64,000 nucleotides of DNA from Promethearchaeota archaeon (GTDB taxonomy: Archaea; Asgardarchaeota; Heimdallarchaeia; Hodarchaeales; Hodarchaeaceae), in NCBI GenBank assembly GCA_048938105.1, contig JBHLMN010000003.1, positions 192,001 through 256,000 on the forward strand. The letters are read 5' to 3'. Each line of letters starts with the position of its first letter. Positions within the stretch are counted from its first letter, which is position 1. Shown piece by piece: positions 7,331 through 20,868 of the stretch. The translations under genes were made by a program, and so were the position numbers. Under the pieces are notes generated by a model. It saw only the letters and a program-made list of their open reading frames with translations, ran no database searches and was not told where the DNA came from.

Positions 7331-8935
7331 TTAACGAGTATTCATTCTCTTGAACCACTTTTTATTCTGTTTATAGAGGTTCTTAAATTCTTTAAACAAA
7401 CGATCATATAATAATCGATATTCTGGGTTTGGATAAAACTCTTTGTCAAAATAAATGAAATCCTTAATTTCTGCAGGATCATTTAATTCTTCCAGTGCCA
7501 TTTTAGCTACTATGGCTGCCCCAATAGCTCCAGCAACTTGTGGCCACTTAACTCGCAAAATTCTTCTATTCATGATGTCTGCATAGATTTGACACCAAAC
7601 ATCCGATTTTGCTCCTCCACCTATAATATGTAGTGACTCCACAGGCGAATACATTTTTTCTACAATTTCTAAAGCCCATTTAGCATTAAACGCCACTCCC
7701 TCAAAAATAGATCGAAGTAAATGTCGGCGATTATGATCTAATGATACATTAATCAAGCCAGCTCGTACATGGTCATCATCCAACGGACATCGTTCCCCAA
7801 ATAGCCACGGCATAAATAGCAAATGGGTTCCTCCTTTCCCTTTCGCTCCGGGTTCACATTGTGCAACTAATTCATCGAAGATCTCGTAAACTTGTTTCTT
7901 CTCTTTCTCTTGAAGCTCTTCTTTGAAGTAAAGAATGCTGTTTTTGACCCACTCTAAAGCAGCTCCCGCAATTTCTTGATGAGCGGTGATTAAATAAAAT
8001 TGATCTGGAAAAGCACTGCCTGTACATCCTGTATAATGACTGATATCAACTTTCCTTTCGGAAACATGTCCTAAAACCCATCCACTGGTTCCAATTTGAC
8101 AATGAAGCTCTCCTTCTAAGACTGCTCCCGATCCAATAGCTGCTGCTGGCATATCACCTATACCACAAACAATTTGTGTTTCTTTTGAGAGACCAAGAAC
8201 ATTAGCTGCTTCATCTGTCAAGTTACCAATAATATCCGTAGGTTTTCGAATTTCGGGGAGTCTATTCATGTCAATTTTGTAAGTTTTACAGAGAGATTTT
8301 GACCATTCATTAAGAGGTTTCCCGTCTTTTTTCCGAGTATCAACCAACCAATACAAATAAGCTAAATCTGTGCTGGTAACCATCTCCCCTGTTAAGCGAA
8401 AAATAATATAATCTTTAACATCCAAATATTTGTAACATTTTTCATATATTTCAGGATGTTTATCTCTTAACCATAAGATTTTAGGGATTTGATCTTTCCC
8501 AGTCAGACCTGGGGCGCCTCCTGTTATACGGAGAAACTTCAAAATCCGAAGGGGACTGTATCCAAGTACTCGTGGCCAGGGGTAGACTTTGTGTAAATAT
8601 TCAGCTCCACGAGCATCTAACCAGATCATACAGTTCATTAAAGGAGAACCACGTTCATCTACAGGTAATAATCCTTGTGTTTGAGAACAGAAGGTCAATG
8701 CAGTAATTTCATCTTTTTGTGTTTGGGTTTTTTCGAGAACTGCTTTTGTTGTTGAAACTAGTATTCTCCACCAATCCTTTGGATCATGCTCAGCGTAACC
8801 TTGTTGCGGGTAAAGCGTGTTAAATTCTTCTACTGCAGAGTCAATTAATTTCATTTCGTTAGATACAAGAACAGCTTTAGTTGCTGTCGTTCCCAAATCA
8901 TAAGCTAAGAATTTTTCAGCACTCAAACCTATCAA
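7331..8935 (-). CDS. FGGY-family carbohydrate/polyol kinase (xylulokinase-like)
   Basis: 'AYDLGTTATKA', 'IWLDARG', 'GIGDMPAAAIGSG', 'IGTSGW', 'GERCP', 'GGGAKS..WCQIYAD'. Confidence 0.92.
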   Translation of the reverse strand: MIGLSAEKFLAYDLGTTATKAVLVSNEMKLIDSAVEEFNTLYPQQGYAEHDPKDWWRILVSTTKAVLEKTQTQKDEITALTFCSQTQGLLPVDERGSPLMNCMIWLDARGAEYLHKVYPWPRVLGYSPLRILKFLRITGGAPGLTGKDQIPKILWLRDKHPEIYEKCYKYLDVKDYIIFRLTGEMVTSTDLAYLYWLVDTRKKDGKPLNEWSKSLCKTYKIDMNRLPEIRKPTDIIGNLTDEAANVLGLSKETQIVCGIGDMPAAAIGSGAVLEGELHCQIGTSGWVLGHVSERKVDISHYTGCTGSAFPDQFYLITAHQEIAGAALEWVKNSILYFKEELQEKEKKQVYEIFDELVAQCEPGAKGKGGTHLLFMPWLFGERCPLDDDHVRAGLINVSLDHNRRHLLRSIFEGVAFNAKWALEIVEKMYSPVESLHIIGGGAKSDVWCQIYADIMNRRILRVKWPQVAGAIGAAIVAKMALEELNDPAEIKDFIYFDKEFYPNPEYRLLYDRLFKEFKNLYKQNKKWFKRMNTR

Positions 8936-8957
8936 TCCACTTTCAAGACGATTTTTG

Positions 8958-10337
8958 TTACATGTAATCTATAGCTTCAATGAGACTATTCTCAAATACT
9001 TCTAAAATATGATCAGAGTCCTCACGAGTGATAATTAATGGGGGTTTTATTTTTAGGATATTCCTAAAGAGTTTTCCACTATCTGAGGATATGGGGGCAG
9101 AATGACCAAAGATGACTCCCTGACTCATAGCCTCCTCAATGAGATCGGAGCATAAAGCATTAGCAGGTTCTTTAGTTTCAGGATCTTTGATGAGCTCAAT
9201 TCCAATAAAAAGCCCTGGACACCTAATATCTCCAATAACATCATATTTTTTTTGCAATTGCTTTAATTTGGATGTTAGGTAATCACCCTGTTCACGAGTG
9301 TTTTTTAAAAGATCAGCTTTTTCAATATAGTTGAGAAACACCAAACCCGAGGCAAACATGAGCGGATTAGCACCGAAAGTCGTGTGTTCCTCTGCAGCAT
9401 TGAATCCAATCAAATTATCTCTAGCAATTGTTACTCCCATTGGTAAACCACCACCAATTGCCTTTGTAAGACAAGTAATGTCAGGAATAACTCCATTATA
9501 GTAATCTGATGCAAACCAATAACCAATACGAGTAAAAACTTGTGATTCATCAAAAATTAAGAAGATATCATTCTTTTGAGTGAATTGTTGAAGTCCTTGA
9601 AGATATCTTTCAGGAGCAGGGATGTGACCACCTGGTGCTTGTAATGGCTCCATCAATATTCCACATACTTTGTCAACTGATCCATACTCAATCATATATT
9701 TTGCAAGTTCTAAACACTCTAAATGACAGGTTTTCTCACTCTCTTGGCCCATAGGACAACGATAACAATAAGGAAAAGGTATTTTAGAGACTTTATCAAA
9801 ACCCCAAGGCCGAAAGCGCGTCACGCCAGCAAATCGAGTAGAAAGGGTCATAGTAGCTAGGGAACTACCATGATAACTTCGAGTAAAGGTATAGAAATGT
9901 TCTGCATCTGGTTTATTAATCATAGCTAAACGTAAAGCAGCTTCAACAGCTGCTCCGCCCCCCATTGCATTAACCGCGATCTTTTTTAGGTTTCCAGGGG
10001 TAATACTAGCCAATTTGTGAATGAATTTAATACGAGGAACAGTTGGAAAACCATAACGAACATGGGTCAACCGTTTTAATTGTTCCCCTACAGCAAACGC
10101 AACATCAGGATTGGCAAAGCCAATATTACATGTCCATGCTTGAGCCGTACAATCCAAAAATTCTTTCCCAGTATAATCTTTTAAGTAAGCTCCATGACCT
10201 TCAAGAAATAATTGATCATAGAAAGGTACTAAGCTTTTTTTATGAACCTCATCTATTTCATTATCAGTTATGTCTGTGATCCAAGATAATATTTCATCAT
10301 CTTTGAAAAGTCGTTTTTGATGCTCCATTTTCATCAT
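8958..10337 (-). CDS. Class-III PLP enzyme, probable amino-alcohol-phosphate phospho-lyase (ETNPPL/PHYKPL-like) rather than a transaminase
   Basis: Class-III motifs 'SYHG', 'FDESQ', 'TKAIGGG', 'HTTFGANP'. Carries 'NILKIKPPL' and 'THVRY' as in phospho-lyases. The fold call is firm; the lyase call is inference. Confidence 0.8.
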   Translation of the reverse strand: MMKMEHQKRLFKDDEILSWITDITDNEIDEVHKKSLVPFYDQLFLEGHGAYLKDYTGKEFLDCTAQAWTCNIGFANPDVAFAVGEQLKRLTHVRYGFPTVPRIKFIHKLASITPGNLKKIAVNAMGGGAAVEAALRLAMINKPDAEHFYTFTRSYHGSSLATMTLSTRFAGVTRFRPWGFDKVSKIPFPYCYRCPMGQESEKTCHLECLELAKYMIEYGSVDKVCGILMEPLQAPGGHIPAPERYLQGLQQFTQKNDIFLIFDESQVFTRIGYWFASDYYNGVIPDITCLTKAIGGGLPMGVTIARDNLIGFNAAEEHTTFGANPLMFASGLVFLNYIEKADLLKNTREQGDYLTSKLKQLQKKYDVIGDIRCPGLFIGIELIKDPETKEPANALCSDLIEEAMSQGVIFGHSAPISSDSGKLFRNILKIKPPLIITREDSDHILEVFENSLIEAIDYM

Positions 10338-10521
10338 TCAGCCTTTAGGTTAGTTTATACTATAAAGAACTGTGATGGTTAAGAATTTTTCTAGATGCTC
10401 CTAGTTTCCCCTTACAAATGACATCTATGACTATATATCATGAAAAATACAATATAGAGATGATAATAATTCTTGATTCAAATCAAGAAAATTAATCAAT
10501 AACTAGAAGAGAATAAAACAA

Positions 10522-10899
10522 TCATTCACGGATTCGTTCTTTCATACTAAATGGAAGATCCCCATATTCTTCAGTTAATAGCTTCGTGAATCTAATTTTA
10601 TATTTCTCTTTAGGTAATGGGTTAACTCGTTCAAAATACAATGTAGCTAGAGTTTTAACAGAGAATTTAACTGGATTCTGCTCTGTTATTTCCTTATTAT
10701 TCACTTTCTCTCCATCGAGATCAATTGTAAAATCTTTAAACTTCTCTTTTTCTATTGATTCGCTTTTAATCTCCAGTTTTATTGGAGCGATAATAGTTGC
10801 ATCACTTATAGTATTTTTCATTTGGAGTTGGAATCCACTCTCATTATTCTTGAACGATTTTTTTACAAATAACTGACGTAGTAAATCCTCGTTTACCAT
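10522..10899 (-). CDS. Small beta-rich conserved hypothetical protein (DUF6379-like / resembles the N-terminal accessory domain of some HMG-CoA reductases)
   Basis: 'LLRQLFVKKSFKNNESGFQLQMKNTISDATI' pattern; SD-like AGGAG before ATG. Confidence 0.5.
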   Translation of the reverse strand: MVNEDLLRQLFVKKSFKNNESGFQLQMKNTISDATIIAPIKLEIKSESIEKEKFKDFTIDLDGEKVNNKEITEQNPVKFSVKTLATLYFERVNPLPKEKYKIRFTKLLTEEYGDLPFSMKERIRE

Positions 10900-11115
10900 A
10901 ATTTAATACTCCTTTGTGAAATATAAAGCATAGGAGGGTATTTCATACCTCCAATCATGAAATAGAAAATTATACTTTAAATTTATTGATAATATATTTT
11001 TTGAGAGCTATTATATCATGAAGATAATAGCCAGATATTTGGGAACATTTATGAGATTAATAATTAAAAATAAGACTCAAGATAATAATTCTGATTTATG
11101 GATAGATGAAAAGAG

Positions 11116-14064
11116 ATGAAGAAGCATAACTGGGGAATTACTTTTATTTTGATATTTTGTTTGATTTCTGTTTTTTCGGCCACAAAGACCACAGAATCTT
11201 CAAATAGTAAATTATCTAGACCTCTAGAAACACCCCAAGCGACCTTTTCTATCGCTGATAGTGAGGGCCCCATTATTGGATTACCATCTTTAAATAACAC
11301 GAATCCTAATAGTGATGAAGGTGTTGAGGTAACGTTTCCTATTGATGATATTGACGGTGTGCAAAATGCGACATTATTCTGGGAATATACTTTCAATAAC
11401 AGTCAATATAATCACACGGTTTACAATACAATTAGCGATCGTGAAATTCGTTTAAGAAATACTGACTTTCCTAATCCTGTCTATATTTATCAGACTGGTG
11501 TAGAAAGCCCATCTATAACAAATTGGGTATATGGTGAATACATCTTTAATGAATCATGTGTTTCAGTGATAGATATAACAATCGAAGGAGATTTTCGTTC
11601 CAATTTAGTTTATGTCCTTATCCAAGCAAAGAATATTTCTACAGGCTTATGGCAAACTGTCCATGAGAATGGTGCTGATGGATATACGCAAACTCTACCA
11701 GGAAATGATGAAGATTATTATAGTAACGACCTTACACTTGGTTATAAAATCAGTGCGGTAACATATAATAGTGGTGGGGATCCTAATCCTCCTGAATTTG
11801 ATACTCTTGACATTTGGCGAGAGGAAGTTGTGTGGGATATTCCTGCGGCAAACAAAGCTACTTTTGTAGACTATTATGTTAGAGCATTTGATGACCTTAA
11901 CCAAAGTATTTTGTCGCCCACATACACCTTCCTCATGGATTATACCCCTTCTGTATCAATTATGGCGGTACCACCTGTTCTTAGTGCAAACGACGACTAT
12001 ATTCTTAATGTTTCAGTAATAGACCGAGATGGAACAGTAAACAAAAGCAGTGGTGTTGCTTATTATCAATTTGTTGGTGATACCAATTGGACTGCAATTA
12101 GTTTGAATCATCAATATAAAATACCAACTGTACCATATCCAACTCACTTTTTTAATGGTACAATTCCAGCTAGTAACCTTGGAAATGTTGAGACTTATTT
12201 GATTGTTAGGGTTAATGTTTCTGACATGGTAGAAGACAAAAAAGGACGCGAAGGGACTTCTGGAGATCGTTGGATTCGTATCGATAGCCTAGCCCCGAGA
12301 GTTAGCGATATATCGATCGATGGTGGGACTATTATTGAGAATGTTACGTTACCCACTTCACCAGTGTATATCGAAGCAGAATTCGTGGATGCAAGGGGAA
12401 TTAAGTCAGTATTCATCTATTATTCCCTACCAAATGGAACAATACCAATCAAAAAGGAAATGACAAATTTATCATTCACGAGTCCCTATGATTCTCCTGT
12501 ATGGTTTAATGTCACCTTACCTAAGTCAAACATAACTGCTTTTGTAGAGTACTTTTTCGAAACAGAAGACTTTTTTGGAAATAAAGGAAATACTTCGGTA
12601 AATTTCTATTATTCAGACGGATCAGGACCAGTATTAGATACTCTTTCCCTATATCCATCTGTTATTAGTAACTATACTAAAGTACTTGTCCTTTTCAATT
12701 CATCTGATTATTCTGGAACAATGCAATCAGTAGTTTGGTATAGTTTTGACAATCAAATATCTTGGATACCTATTGGGGCTAATCAAATTAATTATCAAGC
12801 CAATATGGACTCAGAAACTTTCACAGCAACTGATCTTCATTATATAAAAGATAACGCAATGAGTTATTTCCCTCTTGAAGTAATTCGAAGCATACCTGTA
12901 GATGAAGCAATATTAACGTTTGAAATAACTCATGAAATGCCCACTGATTTACGAATTTGGCTCAAATTAGACGATGGCAGACGATTCTTACTCTATGATC
13001 GTGAACCTGGTCCAAATACTTTTACCAGAAATATTGATCTTACAAATTTAGGCATTAACGAAAATGATTTCACTAAGGGGAATTTTACTCTGGAAATTCA
13101 AGATTTTTCAGATATCTATTCTGGGTCAATCTTAAATTTCGAAATTGAAATTAGGGATTATAAGTATCCACTTGGCTACCAATATTACGTAGAGATTCCA
13201 GCTTCAGTAAATGATACAATAGTGTTTTTCTATATCAATATGACGGATAATCTGTGGAATTCAGAAAACACCTCCCTCTATCAATACTATGCAGATGGTA
13301 CCGCTCCAAATATAAATATGATACAACTTTCATCACCCATGAATCTTGCTGGAAAACATTATATTCGAGTATCTGCAAATATTATAGATCAAGGAGGTGT
13401 TTTTGGAGCAGATGCTTACTACAAATTTTCTGAGGACGATTATTGGGTTATAGGTACAATGTCTCTAAACAGTACATCAGGAAATTACTTCTTTGATGTT
13501 CCCATTTCCAGTGAAAATGGAACATTGTTTTATAAAGTCCGTGCTTTTGATCTTGCAGGACTTTCATCGGAAACAGCAGTATATTCAGTAAGTTACTCTC
13601 ATGGTCTAGCTCCATTTATCGAAATTCAAGGAATTCCTTACCCATCCCCACTTGATATGGAAGGTAAAAATACAATCAGGATTTGGGCTAATGTTACAGA
13701 TTTTGATGGACAAGTTGTCAACTGCACTATTGGTTACCGATTTACTGATGCTGATGAATGGAAATTTGAGGACATGGTTTATGATGAGGAGACAGGTTAC
13801 TATTACTTCGATGTCAAAGTCAATACAAAGAGTGGTAATTTGACTTTCATCATCGTGGCTTCTGATAATCTGGACTTAACATCGGAAAGTGACCCCTATA
13901 CAATTGAATTCGTTAATGCTGGTACCACTCCTGGACTTCCAACTGATCTTCTCCTCTTTGGAACTGTTTTAGCTGTTGGCGGAGGTGGATCAATAGCAGC
14001 AATTGTTTATTTATCTAAAAAGGGAAAACTCAAACTTCCTGAGAGATTTAGTAGAGGAGACTGA
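11116..14064 (+). CDS. Secreted, C-terminally anchored surface glycoprotein with tandem Ig-like repeats and a proprotein-convertase P-domain
   Basis: Signal peptide; repeats ending 'YYVRAFD/YFFETED/FYINMTD/YKVRAFD/FIIVASD'; P-domain 'ITHEMPTDLRIWL...GNFTLEIQD...GSILNFEIEI'; many N-x-S/T sequons; C-terminal TM plus basic tail. Confidence 0.8.
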   Translation: MKKHNWGITFILIFCLISVFSATKTTESSNSKLSRPLETPQATFSIADSEGPIIGLPSLNNTNPNSDEGVEVTFPIDDIDGVQNATLFWEYTFNNSQYNHTVYNTISDREIRLRNTDFPNPVYIYQTGVESPSITNWVYGEYIFNESCVSVIDITIEGDFRSNLVYVLIQAKNISTGLWQTVHENGADGYTQTLPGNDEDYYSNDLTLGYKISAVTYNSGGDPNPPEFDTLDIWREEVVWDIPAANKATFVDYYVRAFDDLNQSILSPTYTFLMDYTPSVSIMAVPPVLSANDDYILNVSVIDRDGTVNKSSGVAYYQFVGDTNWTAISLNHQYKIPTVPYPTHFFNGTIPASNLGNVETYLIVRVNVSDMVEDKKGREGTSGDRWIRIDSLAPRVSDISIDGGTIIENVTLPTSPVYIEAEFVDARGIKSVFIYYSLPNGTIPIKKEMTNLSFTSPYDSPVWFNVTLPKSNITAFVEYFFETEDFFGNKGNTSVNFYYSDGSGPVLDTLSLYPSVISNYTKVLVLFNSSDYSGTMQSVVWYSFDNQISWIPIGANQINYQANMDSETFTATDLHYIKDNAMSYFPLEVIRSIPVDEAILTFEITHEMPTDLRIWLKLDDGRRFLLYDREPGPNTFTRNIDLTNLGINENDFTKGNFTLEIQDFSDIYSGSILNFEIEIRDYKYPLGYQYYVEIPASVNDTIVFFYINMTDNLWNSENTSLYQYYADGTAPNINMIQLSSPMNLAGKHYIRVSANIIDQGGVFGADAYYKFSEDDYWVIGTMSLNSTSGNYFFDVPISSENGTLFYKVRAFDLAGLSSETAVYSVSYSHGLAPFIEIQGIPYPSPLDMEGKNTIRIWANVTDFDGQVVNCTIGYRFTDADEWKFEDMVYDEETGYYYFDVKVNTKSGNLTFIIVASDNLDLTSESDPYTIEFVNAGTTPGLPTDLLLFGTVLAVGGGGSIAAIVYLSKKGKLKLPERFSRGD

Positions 14065-14111
14065 ATGAGAAATTAAGAATTTTCTTAGTTTCCTCTTATT
14101 TTCTTTTTATG

Positions 14112-15308
14112 TTAAAAATCGATCTCTTTACCTGTAAAAACACACTCAACGATTTTCTCGAAATCCTCATAATCTAATGGTCGTGGATTTGAGAGAGATC
14201 CTGAATCATTCAACGCATATTCAATCAAGCTCTCACGATTTGTTTCATATTGTTCCTTAGTGACTTTCATATCTTGTAACGAAAGAGGTAGTTCGAATTT
14301 GATCAGTAGGTCTTTAAACGCGTTAATTAGCTTGGATGTTAATTCCTCATCAGAAGCTCCATTCATATCAACTAAACGAGCTAAATCAGCAATTCGTTGT
14401 GGCTCAGTATTCTTATTATACATTAAAGAATACCAACACATTGTCCCAATGCAAACTGAATGAGGAATTTTAAACACAGCTCCTATACTGTGGGCTAAGG
14501 AATGAGATAAGATAATTTGAGAATTACCAAAACCCCAGCCTGCCATGGTGGCGGCATTATGAAGTTTCTCAAGCGTTTCTGTATCTATTTCACCATTTCG
14601 GCCCTGTTTGATTGCAATTGGAAGGTTTTCCCACACGAGCTTAAAGGAATGTCTTAATAAAGCGTCTGAGAAGTCGTTCCGCCAATCAGAAAGGTAACCA
14701 TCGATTGAATGACACAAAGCATCCATCCCAGTGCCTGCACGAAGAAGAAGAGGCATTGTTTTTGTAAAAATAGGATCGAGAATAATCACATCCCCAACGA
14801 GTTCACGATTAGCAAATGAAGCTTTACGATCAACTTTATCAGATTCATCAGTGAGAACCGCGGCCCAGGTAGCATCACTCCCTGTCCCACTCGTTGTAGG
14901 GATGTTAATTAATTTACATTTTGTTTTTTCTCTGAGATTTATAGCTCCAACTGGATCGAGCCCCTCGATTGCATCAAGGCCCTTATCGAAATCAGCCCAG
15001 ATTGGCCACATCCCTTTAGCTGAATCAAGGACACTACCCCCACCCAACGCAATAATGACATCTGGCTGACTTTTAGCTAATATTTTGGCTCCTTTTTGGA
15101 CAATCTGTAAAGTTGGTTCACCAAGGATTTCATCAAATACCGTTATCTTAGTATTATTCTTTTTCAGCTTTTCTTCGACTTTCTTGAGATGTAATTTCTT
15201 CATTGTAGGATCAGTTACAATGAAGACATGCTTAAAAGTCTGTTCAGTAAGATAATCTAAAGCATCTTCACCAAATATTACTTTACGCGGATTAGTAAAA
15301 TCCCACAT
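14112..15308 (-). CDS. Iron-containing alcohol dehydrogenase
   Basis: 'GGGSVLDSAK', 'PTTSGTGSD', 'GMDALCHSID', 'HSLAHSIG...IPHS'. Confidence 0.95.
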   Translation of the reverse strand: MWDFTNPRKVIFGEDALDYLTEQTFKHVFIVTDPTMKKLHLKKVEEKLKKNNTKITVFDEILGEPTLQIVQKGAKILAKSQPDVIIALGGGSVLDSAKGMWPIWADFDKGLDAIEGLDPVGAINLREKTKCKLINIPTTSGTGSDATWAAVLTDESDKVDRKASFANRELVGDVIILDPIFTKTMPLLLRAGTGMDALCHSIDGYLSDWRNDFSDALLRHSFKLVWENLPIAIKQGRNGEIDTETLEKLHNAATMAGWGFGNSQIILSHSLAHSIGAVFKIPHSVCIGTMCWYSLMYNKNTEPQRIADLARLVDMNGASDEELTSKLINAFKDLLIKFELPLSLQDMKVTKEQYETNRESLIEYALNDSGSLSNPRPLDYEDFEKIVECVFTGKEIDF

Positions 15309-15339
15309 CTTTTAAGGCTCCCTTACGAGTGAAAAATGA

Positions 15340-15777
15340 TCACGGATACTCTACATCTTCGATCTGTGTGCATTTGACAAGTTCCTGTGTGGCTTTCACA
15401 GCACGTAACATTTTAGCCATATTTTTGGGACTACATTGGACTTTGAATTTACGTTGAAGAACCCCCTTTAATGGATCCAGTGTCGTATCGAAAACCTTTA
15501 ACCAATGGCCATATTTGCCGCCAAAAATATATGCTACGTTTTCTGGGGCAGGTTTTTCAGGAGTTACGTAATAAGCTCCTCGACATTTGCCATGCCACAG
15601 ATCCACGTATACCCTTCGTTCCTCAGTAAAGGTACCTGTACCATCAGGAGTAAATATGAATACAAAATCTCCTTCCCAAGTAGCAGCTGCTTTTGCGTAC
15701 GCTTCACTTCCGTTAAGTTTCTTCACAACAGCATCTAGCCACTCCTGTTCGCCGAATATGATTTTATCATTACCCAT
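15340..15777 (-). CDS. SCP2 sterol/lipid-binding domain protein
   Basis: 'FG..EWLD...KLN....YAKAAATWEGDF...DLWHGKCR...LDPLKGVLQRKFKV'. ATG at 15777 is preceded by SD AGGAGG; track start 15936 is over-extended. Confidence 0.85.
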   Translation of the reverse strand: MGNDKIIFGEQEWLDAVVKKLNGSEAYAKAAATWEGDFVFIFTPDGTGTFTEERRVYVDLWHGKCRGAYYVTPEKPAPENVAYIFGGKYGHWLKVFDTTLDPLKGVLQRKFKVQCSPKNMAKMLRAVKATQELVKCTQIEDVEYP

Positions 15778-15961
15778 TTTATCATTCCTCCTAAATTGAC
15801 CAATTAATTGTATTAGTTTGAGAATATTAGGACACGATTTAAGAGTTACTGTGAGTGCCTCACCCATTCTAAACTTTACAATAGCTAAATAAATTGAAGA
15901 TAGAGAAAAAACTAAAAACCTAAATAATGAAACCAATTCAGTATTTTGGGGTATTTATAAA

Positions 15962-17836
15962 ATGTATGGTTATATAGGTAAGATATTACGAGTGAACCTG
16001 TCAAATGGAACAATAACGGAAGAATTTCCTGATAATGATACTTTGAAAATGTTTCTAGGGGGAGCGGGACTAGCAACTAAATATCTCTTCGATGAAGTCA
16101 AAGCAGGAATCGATCCTCTGGGTCCTGAAAATAAACTTATTTTCATGACTGGCCCGATGACTGGTACTTCATCTCCTAGCACAGGACGATATTCAGTAGT
16201 TGCTAAATCTCCTCTTACAGGATTCTGGGGTCATGCGAACTCAGGAGGGTTTTGGGGGCGAGATCTCAAGAGATCAGGCTTTGATGGGGTTATTTTCGAG
16301 GGAGTCTCTGAAAAACCCGTCTATCTTGTAACTGATGAAGGAAAATTCGAACTAAAAGATGCTACGCATCTTTGGGGTAAAAACACCTCAGAAACAACAA
16401 GACTAATCAAAGAAGAGCTTGGAGAGAAGTTCAATGTCGCTTGTATAGGAATTGGAGGAGAAAATTTAGTCAAGTTCGCGGCAATAATGAATGATGCTAA
16501 TGAAGCAAATTGGGGTCGGGCTGCTGGAAGATGTGGTTTAGGAGCAGTTATGGGATCTAAAAAGTTGAAAGCTGTCGCCTCACGGGGCACAGCAAAAATC
16601 AATGTTTCAGATCCAGCTAAATATAAAGAGGAGGCGAAGAAGCGGTTCGATTGGGTAAATCAGAGCTTGTTAAAAATATCCCTCGAAGTATTCGGAACAG
16701 CTGTAATGCTTGATCTTGTTAATGAAAAAGGTGGATTTCCTACCAGAAATTTTCAACTTGGGATGTTTAAGGAATCAGCGAAAATTAATGGTGAGGCGAT
16801 TAATGATAACATACTCGTTGAAAGAAAACCATGTTTTGCATGTCCCATCCATTGTGGAAGGATCTCGGAAATTAAAACAGGACCATACTCTAGCAAGGGA
16901 GAAGGGCCAGAATATGAGTCACTATGCTCTCTTGGTAGTATGTGTGACATCGATAACCTAGAGGCAATCACATATGCTCACTTTCTATGCAATGAGTATG
17001 GTTTAGATTCGATATCTACAGGAGCAACAATTGCCTTTGCAATGGAGTGTGTTGAAAAGGGAATTCTATCTGATACTGATGGATTAGAGATTAGCTTTGG
17101 TGATGCAAATGTCATGCTTGAACTTGTTCATCGAATTGCTAAAAGAGAAGGAAAACTTGGAAATTTGTTAGCTGAAGGGACAAAGGTTATTTCTGAAAAA
17201 TTGGGCCACGGATCCGAAAAATTTGCCATGCATGTTAAAGGTCTCGAATTACCAGCATATGATAGTAGATCAGCAAAGATAACAGGTGTAGGATTCGCTA
17301 CTGCTAATCGTGGAGGAGACCATATGACTTCTTTCATTGAGGGACCTACCTTTTTGGCTCTACCATTCACTCTTGTTGATGGTGAACTAAGTGATGACCT
17401 AGAAGCAACTCCAGAGGATACTAGAATTCTCAAAGATTATGAGGATGCTTTTGGTGTATTTGACTCCATTGGTGGTTGTAAGTTCATGGGAATGGTACTT
17501 ACAGGAGAGGACTGGGCAACATTAATTGCCACACTCTTCGGTTGGGAAGACTTCACTGAAAAGGATTTTCGAAAAACAGGTGAAAGAATTTTTAATCTTC
17601 AAAGAGCCTATAATATCAGAGAAGGGTTAACCAGAGCTGATGATACACTTCCAAAACGGTTATTAGAAGAACCAATGCCTGAGGGGCCCGCGAAAGGACA
17701 TACGGTGGATCTGGAACCTCTTTTGGACGCTTATTACGCAAATCGAGGATGGAATAAAGATGGAATCCCAACTTCTGATAAACTTCAAGAATTAGGATTA
17801 GATTGGTTATCGAAAGAGATAAGCAAAGATTATTAA
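15962..17836 (+). CDS. aor: Tungsten-containing aldehyde:ferredoxin oxidoreductase
   Basis: 'GYIGKILRVNLS', 'KSPLTG', 'RAAGRCGLGAVMGSKKLKA', 'CFACPIHC', 'EGPEYE', 'DTLPKRLLEEP', 'YY..RGW..DGIP'. Confidence 0.96.
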   Translation: MYGYIGKILRVNLSNGTITEEFPDNDTLKMFLGGAGLATKYLFDEVKAGIDPLGPENKLIFMTGPMTGTSSPSTGRYSVVAKSPLTGFWGHANSGGFWGRDLKRSGFDGVIFEGVSEKPVYLVTDEGKFELKDATHLWGKNTSETTRLIKEELGEKFNVACIGIGGENLVKFAAIMNDANEANWGRAAGRCGLGAVMGSKKLKAVASRGTAKINVSDPAKYKEEAKKRFDWVNQSLLKISLEVFGTAVMLDLVNEKGGFPTRNFQLGMFKESAKINGEAINDNILVERKPCFACPIHCGRISEIKTGPYSSKGEGPEYESLCSLGSMCDIDNLEAITYAHFLCNEYGLDSISTGATIAFAMECVEKGILSDTDGLEISFGDANVMLELVHRIAKREGKLGNLLAEGTKVISEKLGHGSEKFAMHVKGLELPAYDSRSAKITGVGFATANRGGDHMTSFIEGPTFLALPFTLVDGELSDDLEATPEDTRILKDYEDAFGVFDSIGGCKFMGMVLTGEDWATLIATLFGWEDFTEKDFRKTGERIFNLQRAYNIREGLTRADDTLPKRLLEEPMPEGPAKGHTVDLEPLLDAYYANRGWNKDGIPTSDKLQELGLDWLSKEISKDY

Positions 17837-17843
17837 TGGTAAC

Positions 17844-18725
17844 CTAAGTTTTTAACATCTTTCGCAGCTGTTCACGTTGAAGTAAGGTAGTTTTTCTTAA
17901 AAACCGATAGTGTTTCGATTTACGGGAGGGGATAGGAATCCTCTCTAGAGGAGCAGCAAACGCTCGTTCTACTACATTAAAATAATACTTCTCTTCAATT
18001 AACATCAAAAAACGAATAGACCACATAATTTTGTCAACGATTTCTCTTGCCGTGGGAAAGAAGTCAGGATCAGATTCTTTCCACCCTTTAGAACGAGTAT
18101 ATTCTTTAAATATCAAGGGTTCCCCGATTCGAATGGATATATTAGCCTTAAATCTTGGTATGAATTGTCCAGATCTCAACGCCTCATACGCACCATGAAG
18201 ATAGAACGGAATGATTGGGATTTTTCCATTGGTTTTCAAAATTATTCTTCCAACACCAGTACGACCTTCTTGCGCTAAATTATGAAAATCATGAAAAGGT
18301 GTACGCCCAATTCGCTTTCCTTGAGGAGAAATATATACCGCATAACCATGTTTCAAGAGTTTAATTGCGGTAGTTAGGGCAGGTTTTGGATTTTCTTTAA
18401 AAACGGGAAATGCACCAAGATAGCGAGTCAACCCAAAGAACTTATTTTCCATCATTGCTTTTCCAGATGCCATAAATGCTAAAAAGTCTCTTGAACCCTG
18501 GGGTTTTACGATTGCAGACCCAAATAAAACAGAATCAAGATGAGACTGATGATTTCCACAAAATATAACAGGTGTTCCCTCTGGGAGTTTGTTACTATGC
18601 TCTATACCATAAACATTAAACTTGAAGAAAAATCGGCTCCATAGGGGCACAAATGCTCTTATAAAACAATAAAAAGCTCTTTGAAGAAATGACCAATCCC
18701 TGAAAGAGGCTACATTGTACTTCAT
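17844..18725 (-). CDS. Lysophospholipid/1-acyl-sn-glycerol-3-phosphate acyltransferase (PlsC family)
   Basis: Motif I NHQSHLD, 'LGAFPV', motif III variant 'ISPQGKR', 'IPIIP'. Confidence 0.88.
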   Translation of the reverse strand: MKYNVASFRDWSFLQRAFYCFIRAFVPLWSRFFFKFNVYGIEHSNKLPEGTPVIFCGNHQSHLDSVLFGSAIVKPQGSRDFLAFMASGKAMMENKFFGLTRYLGAFPVFKENPKPALTTAIKLLKHGYAVYISPQGKRIGRTPFHDFHNLAQEGRTGVGRIILKTNGKIPIIPFYLHGAYEALRSGQFIPRFKANISIRIGEPLIFKEYTRSKGWKESDPDFFPTAREIVDKIMWSIRFLMLIEEKYYFNVVERAFAAPLERIPIPSRKSKHYRFLRKTTLLQREQLRKMLKT

Positions 18726-18824
18726 TTTACTCTTAAAGTATTATAGGAGTTAATTATAAATGTTTAGGGATTATTAATATTATAACCTCTATTAAGTTTT
18801 TGACGGTTTTTCCTCTGTATAGAA

Positions 18825-20543
18825 TTGGTGAGAGTCTTGACTGAAAAAATGACATATGCTGATAAACCTTGGATAAAATCTTACAAGGTTGGACCGTATA
18901 AACTCCCAAAAACTATGAAACCCTATCCTAAAATTCCTGTAACTAAATTTCTTGATGATGCTGCAACAGATTATCCAGATAACATTGCATGTACATTCAT
19001 TGCAGGAGAGTACAAAACAGATTTAACATACTCTGAGTTGAAGCTACAAGTAGATAAACTCGCAACAGCTCTTGATGGTTTAGGAGTGAAAAAAGGGGAT
19101 AGAGTTGCGACCATTCTACCTTCTTGTCCTCAATTCATTATGGCTGATTATGCAATCATGAAACTTGGAGCGGTGCATGTTCCACTCAGTATCTTACATA
19201 AAGCTCCCGAAGTGCTATATGAATTAAAAGAATCTGGCACTGAAACCGTTATATGTTCCTTTAGACGTCTTGAAAGAATTGATGCAATTAAAGATGAGAT
19301 TAAGTTAAAAAATGTGATCTATACACCAATCCCTTTATTTCCTGATTATTCAATCCCTGAAATGATAAAATTACCTGAAATTGTTAATCTACACCGATTT
19401 GAAGATTTAATCAAAAAAAGTGACAGTAATCCTCCAACAGTCGAAATCAATCCAATGGAGGATCTTGCATTACTCCCATTCACAGGGGGAACGACAGGGG
19501 TTCCAAAAGCAACTATGTTAACTCATTATAACATCACGACTAACGTGATTCAGTCAGTCCAGTGGATGATGCATCCTTTACGTGCAGGTATCAAAGGGAA
19601 AGCTGCTGCATTAATCTGTCTCCCCATCTTTCATCAGGCAGGGCATTTTTTGATGCATGCTGGAATTTCATGGGGATTGCGTGGCTTCTTAATTGATGGA
19701 CGGGATCTATTATTAATAATGGATATAATCAATGAGCATCGTCCGTTCATTGTAGGCGGTGTACCAACACATTACATGTTACTACTTGACAATCCAAACC
19801 TAAAAAGGATACCCATTTTCTTCTTCTCTGGTGCAGCTGCTTTACCACATGATGTTGCAGAAAGGTGGGAAAAAAAAGTTGGGACTCCATTGAGCGAGGG
19901 ATATGGTATGACAGAAGCATGCGCTGTTACTCATATGAATCCATCGGGCCTTTCTAAAGTCACTGGTTTTATGTCAAAAGCAAAGAGATCAGTGGGAGTC
20001 CCTGTTGCTGATACAGAGGTGAAAATTATCAATCTAGAGACAGGTGAAGAAGTCCCCTTTGGTGAACCAGGTGAACTGTGGATTCGTGGACCTCAAACTA
20101 TGAGAGGCTACTGGCCAACAGTAGGTAAGGGGTTACAAGAAGGGGGCTGGTTAGCTACTGGTGATGTTGCGAAAATGGATGAGGATGGCTACTTTTACAT
20201 TGTCGACCGCATAAAAGATATGATTAATGTCAGTGGAATGAAGGTCTACTCTCAAACTGTCGATGATGTATTGCATGGCCATCCTGCAGTTAGTGTTGCA
20301 GGTGTGATTGGAGTTCAGGATCCAGAACGTCCAGGTAGTGAGAGAGTTAAAGCATTCGTGGCTCTAAGAGATGATTATAGAGAGAAGATTACTTCTGATG
20401 ACATACTTCAGTATTGCAAGGACAATCTCCCCTCATACGCTGTCCCAAAATATATTGAAGTTAGAGAATTGTTACCACTGACCCCAGTTATGAAACTTGA
20501 TAAGAAAAGATTAAGAGAAGAAGAGAAGTCACAAAAACTATGA
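18825..20543 (+). CDS. Long-chain fatty-acid--CoA ligase (FadD-like)
   Basis: 'FTGGTTGVPK', 'EGYGMTE', 'TGDVAKMDEDGYFYIVDRIKDMI', terminal Lys in 'PVMKLDK'. Confidence 0.93.
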   Translation: MVRVLTEKMTYADKPWIKSYKVGPYKLPKTMKPYPKIPVTKFLDDAATDYPDNIACTFIAGEYKTDLTYSELKLQVDKLATALDGLGVKKGDRVATILPSCPQFIMADYAIMKLGAVHVPLSILHKAPEVLYELKESGTETVICSFRRLERIDAIKDEIKLKNVIYTPIPLFPDYSIPEMIKLPEIVNLHRFEDLIKKSDSNPPTVEINPMEDLALLPFTGGTTGVPKATMLTHYNITTNVIQSVQWMMHPLRAGIKGKAAALICLPIFHQAGHFLMHAGISWGLRGFLIDGRDLLLIMDIINEHRPFIVGGVPTHYMLLLDNPNLKRIPIFFFSGAAALPHDVAERWEKKVGTPLSEGYGMTEACAVTHMNPSGLSKVTGFMSKAKRSVGVPVADTEVKIINLETGEEVPFGEPGELWIRGPQTMRGYWPTVGKGLQEGGWLATGDVAKMDEDGYFYIVDRIKDMINVSGMKVYSQTVDDVLHGHPAVSVAGVIGVQDPERPGSERVKAFVALRDDYREKITSDDILQYCKDNLPSYAVPKYIEVRELLPLTPVMKLDKKRLREEEKSQKL

Positions 20544-20544
20544 G

Positions 20545-20868
20545 ATGCCTCATTTGACTGATATAACAGACCATCGTAGATTTATTCTGATAACAGTAAG
20601 ATTCTTTGCATCTTTCAAACAAATTACAAACAAGCGTGAAAGAGAAATTAATATAGAGGAAGGAACAACCATCCAACAACTCTTAGAGATTTTATTTGAT
20701 CAATATAGCGCATTAAAAGACAAAATTTTCGATGATAATAATGAGATTAGACAGTGGATACAAATTTTAAAAAATGGACGAAATATTAAATTCCTAAATG
20801 GTGTTGAAACTATATTAACAAATGGGGATATAATAGCTCTGTTTCCACCTGTAGCTGGGGGCGTTTAG
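20545..20868 (+). CDS. MoaD/SAMP1-type ubiquitin-like sulfur carrier
   Basis: 'ITVRFFASF...ILKNGRNI...L.NGDIIALFPPVAGGV'; near aor. True start is probably around 20587. Confidence 0.9.
   Translation: MPHLTDITDHRRFILITVRFFASFKQITNKREREINIEEGTTIQQLLEILFDQYSALKDKIFDDNNEIRQWIQILKNGRNIKFLNGVETILTNGDIIALFPPVAGGV

Follow-up and report, generated by a model that had tools for sequence, protein, structure and literature searches.

The SCP2, alcohol dehydrogenase and aldehyde:ferredoxin oxidoreductase genes of a Hodarchaeales locus: one lipid-aldehyde pathway or a composite of modules?

Do ten genes packed into 13.5 kb of an archaeal genome make up one pathway, or do they belong to several units that lie side by side? 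The question is raised by positions 7331 to 20868 of a stretch of 64,000 nucleotides (the window) from a Promethearchaeota archaeon of the order Hodarchaeales (contig JBHLMN010000003.1; genome of 5.85 Mb in 65 contigs). Coordinates are positions in the window; other genomes, contigs, loci and families are cited where necessary by our own handles (G, C, L and f). An initial annotation made from the sequence alone had read the genes as a single lipid-aldehyde pathway of a kinase and lyase, an SCP2 protein, an alcohol dehydrogenase (ADH), an aldehyde:ferredoxin oxidoreductase (AOR), a PlsC acyltransferase, a FadD acyl-CoA ligase and a SAMP protein. The open reading frame (ORF) listing and profile scans against Pfam and NCBIfam recovered all of these genes where they had been placed, and identities were refined with sequence matches in the PDB, AlphaFold (AF2) models and Foldseek. 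The single 13.5-kb pathway was not supported by a comparison of synteny, which breaks the locus into several modules. With slightly better than even confidence, we read the locus as a composite of independent modules lying side by side in one Hodarchaeales genus. Its core is the SCP2-fold protein, ADH and AOR, which would oxidize a poorly soluble alcohol or aldehyde to the acid that is then converted to acyl-CoA.

The core and the region that divides it are as follows, with protein lengths in amino acids (aa).

14112-15308, minus strand: iron-containing (group III) alcohol dehydrogenase (Fe-ADH), 398 aa; Pfam Fe-ADH and ADH_Fe_C
15340-15777, minus strand: SCP2-fold protein of the TTHA0401 subfamily, 145 aa; AF2 model with Foldseek, and profile match
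15778-15961, no strand: divergent intergenic region between the SCP2-like gene and AOR, 184 bp; read from the sequence
15962-17836, plus strand: aldehyde:ferredoxin oxidoreductase of the AOR sensu stricto type, 624 aa; Pfam AFOR_N and AFOR_C

The Fe-ADH gene starts 31 bp downstream of the SCP2-like gene, and this pair is divergent from AOR across exactly 184 bp, as had been annotated. The SCP2-ADH-AOR trio is the sole widely conserved unit of the locus. A species-level scan (one genome per prokaryotic species) gave at least 573 SCP2-like loci, of which the best 80 were examined, and the trio was found in Asgard archaea, Bathyarchaeia, Thermococci and Chloroflexota. The best 80 of the at least 573 loci include Anaerolineae and other Chloroflexota, Bathyarchaeia, one Thermococci metagenome-assembled genome and Hermod-, Thor-, Loki-, Hel- and Sigyn-archaea; among these 80, the collinear order SCP2-like gene, ADH, AOR is the prevailing one in Anaerolineae, Bathyarchaeia and several Asgard lineages. 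At 16 of 20 Asgard loci outside the genus (at least nine families), the SCP2-like gene has both ADH and AOR no more than about 6 kb away, and none of these same 20 loci contains the kinase, the pyridoxal phosphate (PLP) enzyme, the 125-aa gene, PlsC or the RuBisCO-like protein (RLP) found in or near the cluster. When ORFs were clustered over 94 loci outside the genus, ADH was present at 78 and AOR at 63, and any other family at 14 or fewer. With 13 AOR-family genes in the 5.85 Mb of the genome, a given gene would have one of them within 6 kb by chance in about 3% of cases. In addition, a gene for an NMO/FabK-like flavoenzyme (PF03060) was seen between the SCP2-like gene and Fe-ADH at L171:2679-3770, and its family occurs at 8 of the 94 loci, several of them in Thorarchaeota.

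The AORs of the trio are also related to each other. In a tree of 80 AORs, most of them SCP2-linked and with nine other paralogs of the genome included, 47 SCP2-linked AORs form one clade (support 0.955), and the AOR of the window, its orthologs in the genus and one Bathyarchaeia sequence form a neighbouring clade (support 1.0). Both clades and one further linked AOR form a clade of 60 (support 0.95), and all nine of the other paralogs fall outside it. The predominance of SCP2-linked AORs among the sequences sampled is a caveat to this grouping.

The SCP2-like gene starts with the ATG at 15777, which is preceded by GGAGG, and yields 145 aa. It scored below the gathering threshold of Pfam SCP2 (PF02036; 16.6 bits against a cut-off of 21.3), and the same domain was recognised in many of its homologues. 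The AF2 model, with a predicted local distance difference test (pLDDT) score of 94, matched the SCP2 structures 2cx7 and 1wfr of Thermus thermophilus in Foldseek at template modelling (TM) scores of 0.73-0.84 and 32% identity. Almost all Foldseek matches at E <= 0.001 were SCP2 proteins or domains, with eukaryotic and archaeal SCP2s following the Thermus entries. The family profile matched 2cx7 at E 1e-32, and the motifs WEGD and DLWHGKC were invariant or nearly so in 23 homologues. On the basis of the predicted structure and the profile match, we take the SCP2-fold assignment as confirmed despite the sub-threshold Pfam score. Of 300 genomes sampled from the phylum, 207 have a homologue of the protein. 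Among longer proteins of its subfamily, a search gave sporadic fusions only (SIR2, EPSP synthase and others). Within the divergent region upstream of the gene, only the stretch CAATAGCTAAATAAATT is shared, and with the closest relatives only; alignment of the divergent intergenic regions across the genus gave no genus-wide conserved operator.

One protein joins SCP2 domains to an AOR. Contig C75 of G036 encodes an 887-aa protein (L253:706-3369) with N-terminal SCP2 domains (PF02036, 1e-13) fused to a complete AOR, and a ThiS-like gene follows it. AORs of about 790 aa are also found downstream of Fe-ADH in G024, G032 and G036. Their 160-aa C-terminal tails gave sub-threshold SCP2 signals only (Pfam E 0.005-0.05; hhalign probability 7%), and we do not claim these tails as SCP2 domains.

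The AOR of the window (AFOR_N, E 1e-78; AFOR_C, E 2e-135) aligns end to end with Pyrococcus furiosus AOR (1aor) at 552 bits. Its CFACPIHC corresponds to CYACPIGC of 1aor (CxxCxxxC) and its fourth Cys to the same residue there (GGCKF and GLCLF), while EGPEYES is identical in both proteins and GGDH aligns with GGCH. We take the four Cys residues of 1aor to be ligands of the [4Fe-4S] cluster and the Glu and His of the last two motifs to be catalytic. The protein is by its sequence a member of the AOR sensu stricto family, from which a tungsten-bis-pterin cofactor and oxidation of aldehydes are predicted. The Fe-ADH scored 138 and 129 bits against its two Pfam domains and has GGGS at residue 94 and HSLAH (HxxxH) at residue 274. 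The ADH domain of AdhE (3zdr) is its best PDB match, and no NCBIfam equivalog cut-off was reached, which leaves its substrate unassigned.

In the genus the trio is extended by a ligase and a small beta-grasp protein, the gene for which starts one base past the ligase stop codon.

18825-20543, plus strand: AMP-forming acyl-CoA ligase, 572 aa; Pfam AMP-binding (280 bits) and AMP-binding_C
20545-20868, plus strand: SAMP1/MoaD-type small beta-grasp protein, 107 aa; NCBIfam SAMP1 and moaD_arch

The ligase carries the AMP-binding core motifs TGGTTGVPK, GYGMTE and GGWLATGD. Against the best NCBIfam long-chain models it reached only 368 bits (cut-off 705) and 363 bits (cut-off 476), and the nearest PDB entries were a feruloyl/fatty-acyl-CoA synthetase, A. 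fulgidus FadD-1 and 4-coumarate-CoA ligase. AOR and ligase are neighbours in most members of the genus, and the AOR-ligase-MoaD/SAMP run is genus-specific. In the sister species G018 and G020 the orthologs of AOR and ligase form a single in-frame ORF, of 1222 aa in G018 (L034:9001-12669) and of at least 1162 aa in G020, where it reaches the contig end (L036:6107-9595). One Bathyarchaeia genome (L214, G301:C20:8000-26982) has an adjacent AOR and ligase, 73% and 63% identical to the Hodarchaeales pair, downstream of its own SCP2-ADH pair. This high identity suggests a transfer between phyla in which, as judged from the sequences, AOR and ligase may have moved as a pair. The same Bathyarchaeia locus has a thiamine pyrophosphate (TPP)-dependent, decarboxylase-type enzyme and a glyoxalase-fold protein between ADH and AOR, with a LarA-like gene upstream.

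The small protein reached 91.7 bits against NF041918 (SAMP1; cut-off 60) and 86.2 bits against TIGR01687 (moaD_arch; cut-off 49.5). It ends in ...VAGGV (20845-20868), so that its Gly-Gly is masked by one valine, and removal of this residue would be needed for a free C-terminal Gly-Gly. The initial annotation had tied a MoaD-like gene to the AOR, and this is a recurrent pattern: each of the three MoaD-like genes found in the genome has an AOR-family gene no more than 5 kb away, and in the aorABCDE operon of Aromatoleum aromaticum MoaD-like genes are encoded with AOR and are thought to aid maturation of the tungsten cofactor (PMC6365974). The MoaD/SAMP protein most likely serves synthesis of the pterin cofactor for AOR. 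In a separate case on contig C53 (C53:168880-171734; L217:5880-8734), an 857-aa AOR is fused to an orotidine monophosphate (OMP)-decarboxylase/HUMPS-like domain and is followed by a 93-aa ThiS/MoaD-like gene, with a SIS-domain protein adjoining; this fusion may link AOR to hexulose-phosphate or formaldehyde chemistry.

A route can be proposed from these parts, although its direction, the role of the SCP2-fold protein and the class of substrate are points that we infer. The Fe-ADH would convert an alcohol to the aldehyde with NAD(P)+, and the AOR would oxidize the aldehyde to the acid with ferredoxin, while the SCP2-fold protein would hold or deliver a poorly soluble substrate or intermediate. 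In the genus, the acyl-CoA ligase would activate the acid to acyl-CoA, which would enter beta-oxidation. Activation of the acid is proposed because the AOR is coupled to an AMP-forming ligase and fused to it in two species, and the same coupling and fusion favour the oxidative direction. The conserved SCP2-fold partner, fused to AOR in G036, argues for a poorly soluble or reactive substrate. Beta-oxidation genes able to accept the product, which had been assumed, were found in the genome (matches to 9 acyl-CoA dehydrogenases, 5 3-hydroxyacyl-CoA dehydrogenases and 8 enoyl-CoA hydratases). Thus, the part of the initial annotation that linked ADH, AOR and ligase in a passage from alcohol or aldehyde to acid and acyl-CoA is retained, given the conservation of the trio across phyla and the AOR-ligase fusions, and the kinase, the "lyase" and PlsC are placed outside the route. 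The substrate may be fatty, isoprenoid or aromatic, and these classes are candidates only.

Several points weigh against the proposed route. First, binding of a hydrophobic ligand by the SCP2-like protein is predicted from its modelled fold only, and a long-chain substrate is no more than a candidate. Secondly, the search for longer proteins of the SCP2 subfamily gave no fusion to ADH or AOR, which is weak evidence. Third, the enzymes have relatives of other specificity: the Fe-ADH has its nearest match in the short-chain ADH domain of AdhE, aromatic-acid ligases are among the nearest solved relatives of the ligase, and the AOR is closest to that of P. furiosus, which prefers aldehydes derived from amino acids. 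Fourth, AOR-ADH pairs operate in both directions, including the reductive one (PMC10816221, PMC8466923). Lastly, synteny within the genus proves no function by itself, because the unrelated flanking genes (an Arf GTPase gene and sufCD) are equally conserved.

The relatives of the enzymes bear on a second explanation, in which the trio is an aldehyde branch-point in the fermentation of amino acids and 2-oxoacids. Short, branched and aromatic aldehydes would be oxidized by AOR or reduced by ADH according to the redox state, and the SCP2-fold protein would buffer the hydrophobic or toxic ones, with no lipid involved. This agrees with the 552-bit match to P. furiosus AOR, with the decarboxylase-type TPP enzyme between ADH and AOR in the Bathyarchaeia locus, with a ligase as similar to feruloyl- and coumarate-CoA ligases as to FadD, and with the presence of 13 AOR-family genes in the genome, as in peptide fermenters. 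AORs are also most active on short and aromatic aldehydes; their range with ferredoxin is nevertheless broad, with micromolar Km values up to C8 and oxidation of C9-C10 aldehydes (PMC10816221). However, a dedicated SCP2-fold partner that is kept across phyla and once fused to AOR is hard to explain for water-soluble substrates, and the AOR-ligase fusion indicates recovery of carbon as acyl-CoA and not excretion of the acid. We consider the fermentation branch-point possible but improbable.

The reversibility of AOR-ADH pairs bears on a third explanation, in which reduced ferredoxin drives AOR from acid to aldehyde and ADH reduces the aldehyde to alcohol, either as an electron sink or to supply fatty alcohols for ether lipids or waxes. 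In engineered P. furiosus, AOR and ADH reduce acids to alcohols, and the hosts of the trio are strict anaerobes dependent on ferredoxin. AOR and ADH likewise turn acids into alcohols in Thermoanaerobacter (PMC8466923, PMC10816221). Against this, the ligase would irreversibly draw off the acid as acyl-CoA, which fits oxidation, and clustering of the 94 loci outside the genus linked no genes of wax synthesis or ether-lipid synthesis to the module. Operation in reverse is therefore regarded as unlikely.

The remaining genes of the cluster, and the RLP gene beyond it, are as follows.

7331-8935, minus strand: FGGY-family carbohydrate kinase, 534 aa; Pfam FGGY_N and FGGY_C
8958-10337, minus strand: class-III PLP enzyme with aminotransferase/racemase fold, 459 aa; Pfam Aminotran_3, E 1e-77
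10522-10899, minus strand: beta-sandwich accessory protein, 125 aa; Pfam HMG-CoA_red_N, 9e-16, and a weak CGDB match
11116-14064, plus strand: putative surface protein, 982 aa; weak Pfam P_proprotein match only
17844-18725, minus strand: PlsC-superfamily acyltransferase, 293 aa; Pfam Acyltransferase, 46 bits
22985-24373: RuBisCO-like protein (RLP)

These genes bear on the reading of the whole cluster as one pathway. According to that reading, an amino-alcohol or sphingoid-like lipid yields an aldehyde through the kinase and a phospho-lyase; ADH, AOR and FadD process this aldehyde, and PlsC re-acylates the product. The ten genes do lie inside 13.5 kb. In addition, a common order was seen in 12 other genomes of the genus, each taken over 20 kb around its AOR ortholog: RLP; then SAMP, ligase and AOR on one strand, divergent from SCP2, ADH, the 125-aa gene, the PLP enzyme and the FGGY kinase; then the Arf GTPase gene and sufCD. 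The genes from SCP2 to FGGY are therefore co-oriented and contiguous in most members of the genus. Since the unrelated flanks are just as conserved, we did not accept this synteny as functional evidence. Some members depart from the common order: the endpoints of an inversion in G018 match the block from ADH to SAMP, and G016 and G001 have no ligase-SAMP pair beside AOR.

An informative genome is G009, a single contig of 4.9 Mb with an estimated completeness of 96% and with proteins 85-89% identical to those of the window. Its FGGY kinase, PLP enzyme and 125-aa genes lie at 2.24 Mb, and PlsC, divergent from a ligase-SAMP-CheR-RLP run, lies 2 Mb away at 4.19 Mb; no SCP2-like homologue and no ortholog of ADH or AOR was detected in this genome. 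G015 likewise retains the FGGY kinase, PLP enzyme and 125-aa gene, and the trio was not found there. The initial annotation had named scattering of the genes in related genomes as a refutation, and in G009 the cluster as a whole is scattered. Thus, the comparison of synteny gave a divided result, in that the trio recurs across phyla and the full cluster does not hold together. The trio remains a unit that is present or absent together. Of all genes in the neighbourhood, RLP is the best conserved (84-91% identity within the genus); it was rejected as a module member, as it stays beside ligase-SAMP-CheR in G009, where the trio was not found. Orderly gene neighbourhoods within one genus can therefore be composites.

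The FGGY kinase, PLP enzyme and 125-aa genes have the same orientation, and the last of these was absent from the initial annotation. They are contiguous throughout the genus and only there, and outside the genus their homologues never accompany the trio. The kinase does not resemble an amino-alcohol kinase and is of the FGGY sugar type: it scored 308 bits against NCBIfam XylB, below the cut-off of 380, its best PDB matches were gluconate kinase 3gbt and xylulokinase, and FGGY kinases act on sugars and polyols. The "lyase" was found to be a generic class-III PLP enzyme. Its best PDB matches were isoleucine 2-epimerase, amino-acid racemases and GABA aminotransferases (195 bits), with archaeal aminotransferases and racemases at 171-179 bits, as compared to 143 bits for the ethanolamine-phosphate phospho-lyase 6tor and 118 bits for 5g4i. 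With this weaker match and with a sugar-type kinase as partner, a phospho-lyase of the ETNPPL/PHYKPL type was rejected. The AF2 model of the 125-aa protein (pLDDT 92) matched the beta subunits of C-glycoside deglycosidases (DfgB/DgpB) in Foldseek at TM 0.62-0.66, which likens the protein to a subunit of an enzyme that acts on sugars; its homologues sit in open frames of 300-500 aa in some Asgard genomes. These three genes probably form an unrelated module that handles a sugar or amino-sugar.

Genes of these kinds also occur together at another locus of the genome, and this could be counted for a single pathway. On contig C20 (C20:117421-124804; L215:5421-12804) an AOR paralog of 647 aa is followed by a canonical SCP2 of 112 aa (PF02036, 1e-12) and by genes for a class II aldolase, an FGGY kinase and a D-2-hydroxyacid dehydrogenase. 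LigT and a PlsC-like gene of 360 aa are divergent from this cluster, and the run from AOR to kinase is maintained through the genus. In another family (f17), three genomes likewise have SCP2, 2-hydroxyacid dehydrogenase and FGGY genes side by side. Clusters of this type suggest that SCP2-fold proteins may also partner with sugar-derived aldehyde chemistry.

The putative surface-protein gene and PlsC are recent additions, which also counts against one pathway. The surface-protein gene was found only in a subset of close relatives, and in most members of the genus Fe-ADH is directly followed by the 125-aa gene; it is an insertion and belongs to no module. PlsC is divergent from the ligase-SAMP pair, as had been annotated, with a gap of 99 bp to the ligase. 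It is absent from the slot between AOR and ligase in most genus members and is kept by a subset of close relatives. In G014 the gene in this slot is 50% identical to the PlsC of the window and 60% identical to another paralog on contig C9; therefore, two different PlsC paralogs have been inserted between AOR and ligase. A third ligase-PlsC pair is present on contig C6 and retained in four relatives. The PlsC type of the window was found in 19 of 20 other genomes of the genus and in none of 19 searched outside it (E <= 1e-30). PlsC is thus a recent lineage-specific insertion, of a kind that pairs with acyl-CoA ligases. Taken with the dispersal in G009 and the sugar-type relatives of the kinase module, this makes a single pathway of all ten genes highly unlikely.

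The PlsC-like protein has the HX4D motif (HQSHLD, residues 64-69). Its motif III is SPQGKR in place of FPEGTR, its score against TIGR00530 (AGP_acyltrn) was 31.9 bits with a cut-off of 102.95, below that for a lysophosphatidic acid acyltransferase (LPAAT), and no sequence match was found in the PDB. By sequence it is placed as a member of the superfamily only. The labels "FadD" and "PlsC" thus hold at the family level, with no finer assignment. As a late addition travelling with acyl-CoA ligases, the acyltransferase may use acyl-CoA. A more speculative proposal, which we consider quite unlikely, extends the favoured route in this direction: SCP2, ADH, AOR and ligase would be an oxygen-free salvage of long-chain or isoprenoid alcohols and aldehydes, and the PlsC types of the genus, repeatedly recruited beside ligases, would esterify the acyl-CoA. 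If so, archaea closely related to eukaryotes would use scavenged lipids to make or remodel ester lipids with fatty acyl chains. In a bolder variant, the fusion of AOR to an adenylating ligase could behave as carboxylic-acid reductases do: ATP would activate the acid, and ferredoxin would drive its reduction.

If the substrate of the favoured oxidative route is poorly soluble, whether fatty, isoprenoid or lignin-derived aromatic, the trio would be a widespread and overlooked oxygen-free entry of carbon into acyl-CoA metabolism for sediment anaerobes, and would bear on the handling of fatty acyl chains by Hodarchaeales. In the literature searched, no relevant paper joined SCP2 (sterol carrier protein) to AOR, tungsten or ADH, none dealt with Hodarchaeales and AOR, and for TT1886 only insect SCP2 papers were found. 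The chemistry of AOR with ADH is known, and the cross-phylum SCP2 partner and the natural AOR-acyl-CoA ligase and SCP2-AOR fusions are undescribed in that literature.

Four known systems can be compared to this locus. The closest in chemistry is the AOR and ADH route of anaerobes such as P. furiosus and Thermococcus, and of Thermoanaerobacter sp. X514, in which AOR acts with AdhE/AdhB (PMC10816221, PMC8466923). Both have a tungsten-type homodimeric AOR sensu stricto with an iron ADH, using NAD(P) and ferredoxin. In contrast, an SCP2-fold protein heads the operon here, and in the genus AOR is coupled to an acyl-CoA ligase, with fusion in two species. The AOR of A. aromaticum has three subunits (AorABC), whereas the enzyme of this locus has one catalytic subunit, neither AorA nor AorC genes lie nearby, and the MoaD/SAMP gene follows the ligase (PMC6365974). 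The SCP2-fold protein is of the same subfamily as TT1886/TTHA0401 of T. thermophilus HB8 (2cx7, 1wfr; profile E 1e-32, 32% identity, TM up to 0.84), a putative SCP2 likened here by sequence and fold only, and the motifs TWEG and DLWHG.CR are common to both. Lastly, the Alk pathway (AlkJ alcohol dehydrogenase, AlkH aldehyde dehydrogenase and AlkK acyl-CoA synthetase) and eukaryotic ALDH3A2 with ACSL lead from alcohol through aldehyde and acid to acyl-CoA and beta-oxidation. The logic of the steps is the same, but the enzyme families are unrelated and the likeness is one of analogy only. Here the aldehyde step is predicted to depend on tungsten and to be linked to ferredoxin, with no need for oxygen, and a soluble SCP2 carrier would take the place of membrane association.

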